From a virus (taxonomy: Duplodnaviria > Heunggongvirae > Uroviricota > Caudoviricetes): a DNA stretch of 6,437 bases. A program made the position numbers. This document shows, in pieces, positions 3,001 through 6,000 of the stretch. Within the stretch, counting starts at the first letter, position 1; each line of letters starts with the position of its first letter. The stretch is from the IMG/VR virus record IMGVR_UViG_2541047435_000013. One strand, given 5' to 3'.

Positions 3001-6000
3001 GGCAGTTCCCATACCAGCAGATAATTCATCAGCGTCCGCTGCAACTCGTTTTTATTTCCTTCACGCAGAGACTGAGCTTTAGTCTTCGCTCCTGTAACAG
3101 GTTCAATGTCATAAACAATCATCGGTGGCGAACAGAATGATTCTGCCTGCAACGTACTTTCGGCACTGAACACACGTCGTCCGGACGTCAGAAACGCCTC
3201 CTGTGGCGTTGAGGGAAACTCCTGCTTCATTTCCTCACGCTGTTCAGTTTCCTTATTGATGTACCACTGCTTCTGTTCATCAGTAAGCGTGATGTTCATT
3301 GCCTTCTCAACCGCAGAAAAATACGTCATTTTTTCCCGTGACAGCTTCAGCCCGCTTTCCGGCACTCTGGCGCTGTATTTAGGATCCTGCCACCAGGCGT
3401 AAAAATGGAATTTATAATCCTGTGCCGTCAGCAATAAGCCTGATGCAGTGATCTCCTGTGCTCGGTTACTCATCTCGTAAAAATCACCACCCACGCCTTC
3501 AGCAGTGGACTCATCAAAAATAATGCATTCATCAGAGACGGCATTAAGCGTACCGGTTCGCAGTTCTTTCGCCTTAGCCGGATATTTCGCGCAAATTTTG
3601 CCGTGCTCTGAGATATGCAGGCGCTGCACCGTACCTGAACGGAATGAGGTTGCCACCTGGATACTCGAGCCGTGACCAAACAGGATATAGCCACCGCTGG
3701 CACCGCTACGACGTTCAACGATGGTGAATGAGGCTCTCAGCCAGTCAGGGAGATGATCAAACGGTACAGCAATTTTTGTGCGGAAAATTTCACTGGCAGC
3801 CTGTTTATCCTGAGCGACGATCCCGCATTTGAGATGCGGAATGAATAATGCCTGGTCGAGAAGATAAATATCAATGGCTGTGGAAAATCCCAGCTGGCGC
3901 GCTTTCAGGATAATATTTTTATTGTGCATGCTCCGGAACAACTGGCGCTGCGCCGGTCGCATTCTGAAGGTGACCAGTTCACCTTTTTCGTTCTGTATTT
4001 TGTAGAGATGATTGAGCCGCCACCAGGGATTGCTCAGTTTAGTCATGATGAACAGACGTTGTTCAGCCTCGGTCATTTCTGACGGCTCATCACATCGCGG
4101 TTCATTCTTCCGGAATGTCATCCAGTCTCCCCGAATTACTCATTTCATGCAGCGATGACACGATGTCACTGACAGGCGTAACAACGCCCCGACGCTGGCT
4201 GGTCAGAATATCGGTTTCAGCTCTGAGTTTATCTCTGGCGGCGTTGATTCTTTCCCGGTCAGCACGAAGTTTTGGTGCTGTCTCAGCCAGGACGTCCAGC
4301 GTCAGCAATGAGCGTTCAATTGACTCGATACGGGCAATATTCCGGTCAAGGGCCTGTTCAGCTTTGAGTATTTTGTCGTAAAGAGCAACACGGGTTTCCA
4401 CGTCAGTTGCCTCTTCCAGGTCGGCGAACATCCCTTTAAGTGCCTTAGTTACTGAAAGTGCGCGGGCCCGGGTGAACACCAGTTCATCGAACAGCACCAT
4501 GTCGGACGCATCATCCATGAGGTTATCTGCCTCAAGATACTTCGCATATCCACGGTGTCTTACGGCGTGGGTGTTTCGCTGAGAAAAAGCGTTTGAAGGT
4601 GGTAAAAGTCGGGAACCACGAATCCGTTTCGTTTCTGCCGAATTTGCGCAGTTTTTTTCAGAGTTTTTTGCGCATTTTTCATCGCCGGAACCCGCGTCAT
4701 TGCAGGGTTCTTCATCTGAGATGTCATGATCGATTTCATGATCGGTTTTATGATCAATTTCATGATCGATTTTGCCCATTTTTATACGGGTTCTGGCGGT
4801 GTTGTAATTAATCTTTTTCTTCCGGCACCAGTCCAGTAATGTTATTCCCGTTTCGGCATGTTCGCGTCGGAATGCCTGCTCCAGCTTTTTCCAGTCCAGC
4901 TTTGCCATGTCACGTTCTGACGTCCTGTGTTAAAAACTGATGCATAATGACCGCTGTGATTTTTCAGATTTCACACAGCAGCACCATATTTGATCGATAT
5001 TTGCACAATGCGGTTGTTTTATCCGGTTTCTTCCACCACCGCACCGGACAGGCGGCTTCGCGGGAAATCGCTCCCATCTCGTGAAAAATGAGAAAACCCG
5101 GTGTGCATCGTTTTTGATTATCCCCGCACACTCCCGCAGAGAAGTTCCCCGTCAGGGCTGTGGACATAGTTAATCCGGGAATACAATGACGATTCATCGC
5201 ACCTGACATACATTAATAAATATTAACAATATGAAATTTCAACTCATTGTTTAGGGTTTGTTTAATTTTCTACACATACGATTCTGCGAACTTTAAAAAG
5301 CATCGGGAATAACACCATGAAAAAAATGCTACTCGCTACTGCGCTGGCCCTGCTTATTACAGGATGTGCCCAACAGACGTTTACTGTTCAAAACAAACAG
5401 ACAGCAGTAGCACCAAAGGAAACCATCACCCACCATTTCTTCGTTTCTGGAATTGGGCAGAAGAAAACTGTCGATGCAGCTAAAATTTGTGGCGGCACAG
5501 AAAATGTTGTTAAAACAGAAACCCAGCAAACATTCGTAAATGGATTGCTCGGTTTTATTACTTTAGGCATTTATACTCCGCTGGAAGCGCGGGTGTATTG
5601 CTCACAATAATTGCATGAGTTGCCCATCGATATGGGCAACTCTATCTGCACTGCTCATTAATATACTTCTGGGTTCCTTCCAGTTGTTTTTGCATAGTGA
5701 TCAGCCTCTCTCTGAGGGTGAAATAATCCCGTTCAGCGGTGTCTGCCAGTCGGGGGCCGGTTGCATTATCCACGCGGGCGGTGCCGGTGGCTTCACGCAC
5801 GGGACCTGGACAGGTGGCGTTGATCCGCAGGCTGCGGTAACCAGCGGCAACGTCAGCGCGAAGAGTTTCATTTTCAGCTCTCGCATCGGCTAATTCCCTC
5901 GAGTATCTGGCATCAAGTGCAGCAACATCACGCTGGCGCTGCTGCATATCAGTAATGGTTGCATTTGCCAGCTCCAGCTCACTGACTTTTTTATCGCGCT

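Follow-up and report, generated by a model that had tools for sequence, protein, structure and literature searches.

A 12-bp array of GATC hexamers in the small terminase gene of a 933W-type Stx phage as the probable TerS recognition element of its packaging site

The late region of a 933W/Sp5-type Shiga toxin (Stx) phage, represented here by a 6437-bp stretch of DNA (IMG/VR record IMGVR_UViG_2541047435_000013, referred to as the window), carries four GATC-containing hexamers at regular spacing inside terS, the gene for the small terminase subunit (TerS). This arrangement raises the question of whether the hexamers belong to the site at which packaging of phage DNA is initiated (pac), as do similar hexamers in phage P1, and, if so, whether the site is governed by Dam methylation. 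In our judgment the array is probably the recognition part of pac in the 933W-type headful Stx phages, this being the most likely reading because differences in hexamer class go together with differences in the predicted recognition helix of TerS, the hexamers are conserved at the level of DNA, and TerS has an N-terminus like that of P1 PacA. A P1-like control by methylation is a different matter and is treated separately below.

The array and the gene that carries it

The following features, given in window positions, bear directly on this question.

4102-4908, minus strand: terS, small terminase subunit of 268 aa (phrog_370, E 3.8e-125 over residues 1-268)
4720..4772, minus strand: 12-bp tandem array with four GATC hexamers, the proposed TerS recognition element of pac
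4774..4908, minus strand: codons of the PacA-like N-terminal helix-turn-helix (HTH) domain, TerS residues 1-45, from profile matches to the PacA family
4786..4806, minus strand: codons of TerS residues 35-41 (YNTARTR), the third helix and predicted recognition helix, from AlphaFold2 and covariation
4643..4679, minus strand: second 12-bp repeat, consensus TTTGCGCAGTTT, 3.2 copies, with two TGCGCA at 4645-4650 and 4669-4674

On the plus strand, TGATCG is found at 4727-4732, 4739-4744 and 4763-4768 and TGATCA at 4751-4756, all at an exact spacing of 12 bp, and Tandem Repeats Finder reported a single array at 4720-4772 with a period of 12, 4.4 copies, 82% matches and no indels. The sequence scan and the repeat search agree with what had been noticed originally, namely four TGATC(G/A) elements in perfect 12-bp register inside the 5' part of terS. 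The array covers nt 139-186 of the gene, directly after the HTH codons, and window 4723-4770 corresponds to 28913-28960 of AF125520. Read on the coding strand the hexamers are YGATCA, and the four units (ATC GAT CAT GAA, ATT GAT CAT AAA, ACC GAT CAT GAA and ATC GAT CAT GAC) encode the peptide IDHE IDHK TDHE IDHD at TerS residues 47-62, a fourfold consensus (I/T)DH(E/K/D). The even register of the hexamers exists because the 12-bp unit was tandemly duplicated, and therefore the four copies are not independent events. TGATCR is not enriched in the window overall (14 matches, compared with 9.3 +/- 3.7 expected). The clustering of GATC is far from chance: among 5000 first-order Markov simulations of the window, 26 contained at least four GATC within 40 bp and none contained an evenly spaced run of at least four.

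The identity of the gene as the small terminase gene of a headful-type phage, which had also been proposed, is supported by the full-length match of its product to the phrog_370 family profile and is in line with the literature on the packaging mode of 933W discussed below. The product is 99.6% identical (tblastn) to L0112 of 933W, a putative small-subunit terminase, and the segment 4102-5316 is 99.8-99.9% identical to 933W, VT2-Sakai, Stx2 phage 86 and many further Stx phages. TerS residues 5-94 match phrog_1711 at E 3e-5, and P1 PacA matches phrog_370 in return at E 1.9e-4; that phrog_1711 is the PacA family follows from the match of PacA itself to this profile (E 4e-202). In addition, BLASTP aligned TerS residues 4-90 to PacA 1-91 (E 0.009). 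These matches support a PacA-like N-terminus for about 95 N-terminal residues only, the C-terminal parts of the two proteins being unrelated.

In an AlphaFold2 model of TerS, built from 28 homologues, the N-terminal domain consists of helices at residues 6-20, 24-30 and 35-41 with a predicted local distance difference test (pLDDT) score of 75-87, followed by a predicted disordered linker at residues 48-116 (window 4561-4767; pLDDT <50) and then by long C-terminal helices. The array repeats fall in this linker, where sister lineages have chemically unrelated peptides. A Foldseek search of the model against PDB gave coiled-coil noise only, with no match at E <= 0.001.

Hexamer clusters and recognition helices across the TerS family

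About 115 terS loci were gathered from GTDB genomes, IMG/VR and other assemblies (Enterobacterales and Aeromonas prophages; labels beginning with L below). In every lineage, short lineage-specific peptide repeats follow right after the conserved HTH, and in the DNA these repeats are clusters of one hexamer. The hexamers are listed here with their occurrence and with the motif found in helix 35-41 (number of sequences in brackets).

TGCGCA: many E. coli, Salmonella, Providencia, Dickeya and other prophages; ARRYIK and ARRHIK (25)
TGCGAA: Klebsiella/Enterobacter-type prophages; AKRYIK (25)
TTCGCA, the reverse complement of TGCGAA: Pectobacterium/Dickeya-type lineage; AKRYIT and AKRHIT (5)
GTACGC: a lineage with a different HTH; AIRKRAK-type helices (6)
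YGATCA: the 933W type and a diverged Salmonella lineage; ARTRIK (14) and ARTQIK (4)

The helix motif predicts the hexamer class with no exceptions among unique DNA sequences, and the positions that covary with the class are residues 39-41 of TerS. The window, with an ARTRIK helix and four YGATCA, matches this family-wide correspondence. Among 120 database proteins, at least two Asp-His/Gln repeats were present in 10 of the 11 with ART/ARI helices, and repeats of the Ala-Gln type (A[QH]) without the Asp type were present in all 89 with ARR(Y/H) helices. Furthermore, identical helix-hexamer pairs occur on differing C-terminal domains, both phrog_370-type and Terminase_2-type. Such a coupling of hexamer class and helix across the whole family is what a TerS recognition site would predict, and this expectation for pac is supported by the comparison. 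No description of a family-wide rule of this kind was found in the searchable literature, and a full-text search turned up no paper in which TGCGCA is linked to terminase or pac.

The clusters are local and are marked in the DNA. When 31 representative terS genes were counted, in loci of 3.0-3.9 kb each in all, the 225 nt after the HTH codons contained 3-9 copies of the hexamer and the remaining ~2.8-3.6 kb of each locus contained 0-5. In most lineages the copies lie in two or three reading frames, in which they are read as Ser/Thr/Asn-Ala-Gln, as Val/Leu/Met-Arg-Lys/Thr/Asn or as Cys-Ala. For the TGCGCA lineages, Ala was encoded by GCG in 75 of 85 linker Ala-Gln/His dipeptides compared with 122 of 462 Ala codons elsewhere, a large effect for which Fisher's p = 1.5e-27 takes no account of sequence relatedness and so overstates independence; the base preceding the Ala codon of these dipeptides was T in 78 of 85. 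Judged from these sequence patterns, the hexamer clusters are selected as DNA and not as peptide.

The diverged Salmonella lineage provides a close view of this conservation. Its TerS proteins (P0034, P0059, P0024 and P0050) are 57-61% identical to that of the window, and its genes (L118-L123) carry 3-5 YGATCA at nt 141, 153, 165, 177 and 189, the same positions as in the window. In the corresponding peptide, SDQK SDHK NDHE SDQK NDHN, His and Gln alternate and Ile/Thr is replaced by Ser/Asn, and GATCA together with the preceding pyrimidine is kept. Alignment of terS and the repeats to P1 and to related prophages, which had been suggested as a check, thus finds the hexamers conserved in DNA beyond what the protein needs. 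A Salmonella unit, AGT GAT CAA AAA, differs from that of neighbouring Salmonella TGCGCA-type genes, AGT GCG CAA AAA, solely in the centre of the hexamer. Whether the N-terminal 45 or the C-terminal 160 residues are compared, the two GATC lineages are less similar to each other than each is to TGCGCA-type relatives from its host genus, and therefore helix and hexamer either changed twice or moved as a small module. The GATC hexamer would be a specificity variant of an ancestral TGCGCA (TG-CG-CA to TG-AT-CA) that arose together with a change of the recognition helix from A-R-R-Y to A-R-T-R/Q.

Variation and neighbouring elements in the 933W type

Among 933W-type relatives GATC is kept in every array copy and the number of copies varies. 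Four copies are the majority form (two protein clusters with 558 and 256 member sequences); three are found in LC645447 and in LC727869, which is interrupted by an insertion sequence (IS), five in L062 and P0025 (57 members) and seven in P0001, and forms with one and two copies are known from partial or prophage sequences, which may or may not stem from viable phages. Of 5426 complete E. coli genomes, 386 carry a terS 5' part of the array type. In P0002, which represents the 558-member cluster, the recognition helix reads ARIRIK instead of the ARTRIK of the window and 933W, alongside the same 4-copy array; this natural helix variant could inform binding studies.

In LC727869.1 (L006) an IS3-family element at 3139-4433, with transposase open reading frames at 3220-4110 and 4107-4433, lies directly after a 3-copy array, the insertion point falling between ...GAT CAT GAC ATC and TGAACCGCCCCGGG. 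The same pattern was found in LC727842-LC727866, the group consisting of Stx2a prophages of ~48-51 kb. The insertion cuts terS short at about residue 59, and those prophages should therefore be packaging-defective. It also accounts for the restriction of the TerS match to residues 1-55 in the LC7278xx records, which we had considered as a domain boundary and rejected. Many "partial terminase" proteins in the databases begin immediately behind the array (P0006, 173 members), which could be due to this insertion or to breaks in the assemblies.

Three further elements lie near the array. The TGCGCA repeat lies ~50 bp downstream of the GATC array within the gene and has a homologous counterpart in Escherichia phage PhiR12_3 (PV340552), where the two hexamers are at nt 292 and 304 of terS; it may either be left over from the ancestral site or form a distal part of pac. 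A fifth TGATCG at 4991-4996 on the plus strand, 87 nt upstream of the terS ATG, had been proposed as part of a second arm, a proposal that we did not retain: it occurs in L065, which is of the TGCGCA type and lacks the array, whereas neither the array-bearing L060 and L062 nor the Salmonella GATC lineage has it. Its presence does not track the array, and it was rejected as part of the site. When the 200 nt preceding terS were aligned, it emerged that a block located ~40-75 nt before the start (window 4930-4975, minus-strand sense ...GTGAAATCTGA(A/G)A...) is conserved across the E. coli and Salmonella lineages despite diverged surroundings; this GTGAAATCTGA block may be a signal in the late transcript or for translation.

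Packaging, methylation and the relation to known pac sites

One study reports that 933W performs generalized transduction, and cites the original genome paper for virion DNA that is probably terminally redundant (PMC3752737). On these two properties 933W is a pac-type phage, and a pac site is therefore expected in or near terS. The neighbouring genes in the window are as follows.

340-2415, minus strand: portal gene, P22-like (E 1.1e-128)
2415-4121, minus strand: terL, large terminase of 568 aa
5317-5610, plus strand: bor
5642-6106, minus strand: Rz

The start of terL at 4121 and the stop of terS at 4102 leave an overlap of 20 nt (4102-4121) that is also found in relatives and suggests translational coupling. 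An Rfam scan of the window matched no family, and a scan of 4500-5350 for promoters and terminators found none adjoining the array.

From what is known of P1 and other pac phages, we infer the following for binding, oligomer geometry, the position of cleavage and the direction of packaging. TerS, the product of the gene that bears the array, would bind the repeated YGATCA through its N-terminal HTH, with several HTH domains of one TerS oligomer sitting on neighbouring hexamers 12 bp apart. The complex would recruit TerL, the presumed nuclease and motor, which would cut near the TerS-bound site, and unidirectional headful packaging would then run, probably leftwards in the window, in the direction of terL and the portal gene.

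Several observations weigh against this assignment. Some of them concern the strength of the DNA-level signal: the four copies share one frame and derive from tandem duplication, which makes for a weak signal within the 933W lineage alone; GAT is used at all four Asp-His positions of the array compared with 9 of 21 Asp codons elsewhere in terS; and copy numbers of 1 to 7 among relatives indicate that no fixed number is required. Likewise, the helix-hexamer classes represent few independent evolutionary transitions and the p-values ignore relatedness, and P1 itself combines an ARRY helix with TGATCA, so that there is no universal helix-hexamer code. Other observations concern architecture. A consensus scan for sites of integration host factor (IHF; WATCAANNNNTTR, at most one mismatch) gave no match at 3924-5236; there is only one GATC array and no second GATC arm, the downstream repeats being TGCGCA; and TerL has no significant similarity to P1 PacB (best E 3.7). 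Finally, no mapped pac site of 933W and no physical ends for the phage family were found in the full-text literature, and for Lys19259Vzw, a 933W-like phage, the published analysis gives a PhageTerm call of "Mu-like", with no fixed terminus and no pac peak (PMC7946995). According to the same paper, this call was made because the read termini contained host DNA (PMC7946995), and for a pac prophage such a result could instead reflect in-situ packaging, of the lateral-transduction type, from the integrated prophage. The start coordinates of database records were of no use as a proxy for physical ends, since PV189406 and PV189404 end inside terS because the depositors re-linearised them at terL. 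The original proposal of a packaging initiation site in terS has comparative support as far as a TerS recognition element is concerned, and a full P1 architecture is not supported.

Whether the repeats act as DNA at all is the point on which two alternative explanations differ from a recognition site. The array could be a neutral in-frame variable-number tandem repeat, prone to slippage, in a disordered linker, with GATC incidental and without function in the DNA. The perfect tandem repeat, the single frame of all copies, the polymorphic copy number (1 to 7) and the predicted disorder of the region are all as expected from this explanation, and the period of any in-frame repeat must be a multiple of 3. 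However, YGATCA is kept in position in the Salmonella lineage at 57-61% identity while I/T changes to S/N and H to Q, and across the family the hexamers occur in several frames, show a strong bias at synonymous sites, and belong to classes that covary with the recognition helix; neutrality is therefore improbable. Selection on the protein would make the Asp-His repeats a metal-binding or pH-sensing segment of TerS and GATC a by-product of GAT-CAT codons. His and Asp do recur at a regular spacing of four residues, and Asp-His-rich stretches are also present in P1 PacA. In contrast, the Salmonella lineage and the P1-like phage JK004 retain GATCA with Gln in place of His, Ser-Ala-Gln-Lys repeats stand at this point in sister lineages whose C-terminal part is 93-96% identical, the segment has a pLDDT <50, and in P1 a role at the DNA level was demonstrated by synonymous mutation (PMC10028697), which leaves selection on the protein a very poor candidate. 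The cross-lineage data contradict both the neutral and the protein-level explanation.

Two other alternatives accept a function of the DNA and assign it differently. If the hexamers were sites at which the TerS HTH autoregulates terS and terL, or at which TerS is loaded, the site that defines cleavage would be elsewhere. The comparative evidence shows that protein and site are coupled, not what the coupling is for, and no end mapping was found in the literature; nevertheless, in P1, the one characterised relative, the equivalent hexamers of pacA are the pac site itself, and no promoter-like or terminator-like element adjoins the array of the window, so that we give this possibility little credence. 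It has also to be considered that the four GATC form a cluster that senses Dam and SeqA, being bound by SeqA when hemimethylated and timing late events after replication independently of TerS. SeqA prefers substrates in which GATC sites lie close together, at a spacing of about one turn of the helix, and 933W has an N6-adenine methyltransferase of its own, L0094. Yet the equivalent arrays of sister lineages have no GATC, the GATC lineages show a matching change of the recognition helix, and no phage Dam was found within 7.6-10 kb upstream in the Salmonella GATC-type prophages. A timing device of this kind is thus quite improbable, and a TerS recognition element of pac remains the reading that we prefer.

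With regard to methylation, the array will be Dam-methylated in E. coli, every hexamer containing GATC. That methylation controls cleavage as in P1 is an extrapolation from that phage which we hold only tentatively and consider somewhat unlikely. In its favour, the hexamer is that of P1 and 933W encodes L0094; against it, TerL is of a different family from PacB, and the hexamers of the sister lineages lack GATC. The same TerS body is combined in sister lineages with TGCGCA, which has no GATC, and methylation is therefore no inherent trait of the terminase family. A Dam encoded by the phage was considered as a constant partner of the GATC array and dropped, there being no usable correlation: 933W has one, no homologue of L0094 was found at 10.0-30.6 kb of PhiR12_3 (TGCGCA type), and none was found within the 7.6-10 kb examined upstream of two Salmonella GATC-type terS genes. 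Taken as a whole, a scheme in which a paired switch (CG to AT in the hexamer, Arg-Tyr to Thr-Arg/Gln in the helix) yielded a Dam-methylatable array with P1-like epigenetic gating, on a helix-to-hexamer relationship that is re-programmable throughout the superfamily, is speculative and would in our view probably not hold in full. If it were true, the epigenetic gating known from P1 would extend to packaging in a major family of toxin-carrying phages.

Mapped pac sites are known for only a handful of phages, and the 933W/Sp5 group carries Stx2 in E. coli O157:H7 and can perform generalized transduction. A candidate recognition element of ~50 bp makes the pac site of this group testable. A defined pac candidate would predict the direction in which host DNA beside the prophage is packaged in situ, and would allow the design of transducing or non-packaging derivatives. 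Moreover, the association of one helix motif with one hexamer across several C-terminal architectures of terminases offers a rare natural series for the evolution of TerS specificity.

Close relatives of the array are found in the TGCGCA-type terS genes, such as that of PhiR12_3, which belong to phrog_370 like the gene of the window, with up to 96% identity in the C-terminal 160 aa, and which are also found in many Salmonella, Citrobacter, Dickeya and Aeromonas prophages. They have a hexamer cluster at the position equivalent to the array, with a 12-bp unit spacing in close relatives. The difference lies in the centre of the hexamer and in the helix: the TGCGCA type has CG, no Dam site and a helix A-R-R-Y/H, whereas the window has AT and A-R-T-R. 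In phages P22 (gene 3) and SPP1 (gene 1 region), pac likewise lies within or beside the gene for the small terminase, and an oligomeric TerS with HTH domains recognises it. However, the pac of P22 is a single asymmetric site of ~22 bp and that of SPP1 consists of bent pacL/pacR boxes, and neither is made of short palindromic hexamer iterons.

It is P1 that provides the closest parallel among characterised sites. Its pac is bound by PacA and cut by PacA together with PacB (the pacase), and Dam methylation regulates the cut. In the P1 reference sequence (AF234172), the annotated pac cleavage positions and the IHF site fall inside pacA, and TGATCA/G hexamers are located at nt 194, 201, 213 and 228 and at nt 324, 336 and 347 of that gene, where they mostly encode Asp-His, Asp-Gln or Asp-Arg in the PacA frame. 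The P1 site has been described as 161 bp with seven hexamers; its hemimethylated form is bound, cleavage is promoted by full methylation, and synonymous recoding of the hexamers lowered packaging of P1 DNA (PMC10028697). As had been proposed, the array resembles P1 pac in the hexamer (the consensus TGATC(A/G), with a Dam GATC site in each) and in its position inside the small-subunit gene, directly 3' of the HTH codons. The likeness extends to coding mainly as Asp-His or Asp-Gln, but not to two GATC arms, an IHF consensus or a PacB-related TerL. In both systems the hexamers are kept in the DNA while the peptide changes: between P1 and Cronobacter phage JK004, whose PacA proteins are 70% identical, the hexamer positions are equal and the peptide changes from IIDHSNDQHAGDH to PNDQKRDQKKRDQ, as between the 933W type and the Salmonella lineage. 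P1 has two irregular arms (4 + 3 hexamers) around a cleavage region of ~90 bp, whereas the window has one regular 12-bp-spaced array of variable copy number. The comparison of sequences places the long-isolated pac design of P1 within a larger group, in which the array of the 933W type is very probably a simpler relative of the P1 pac site.

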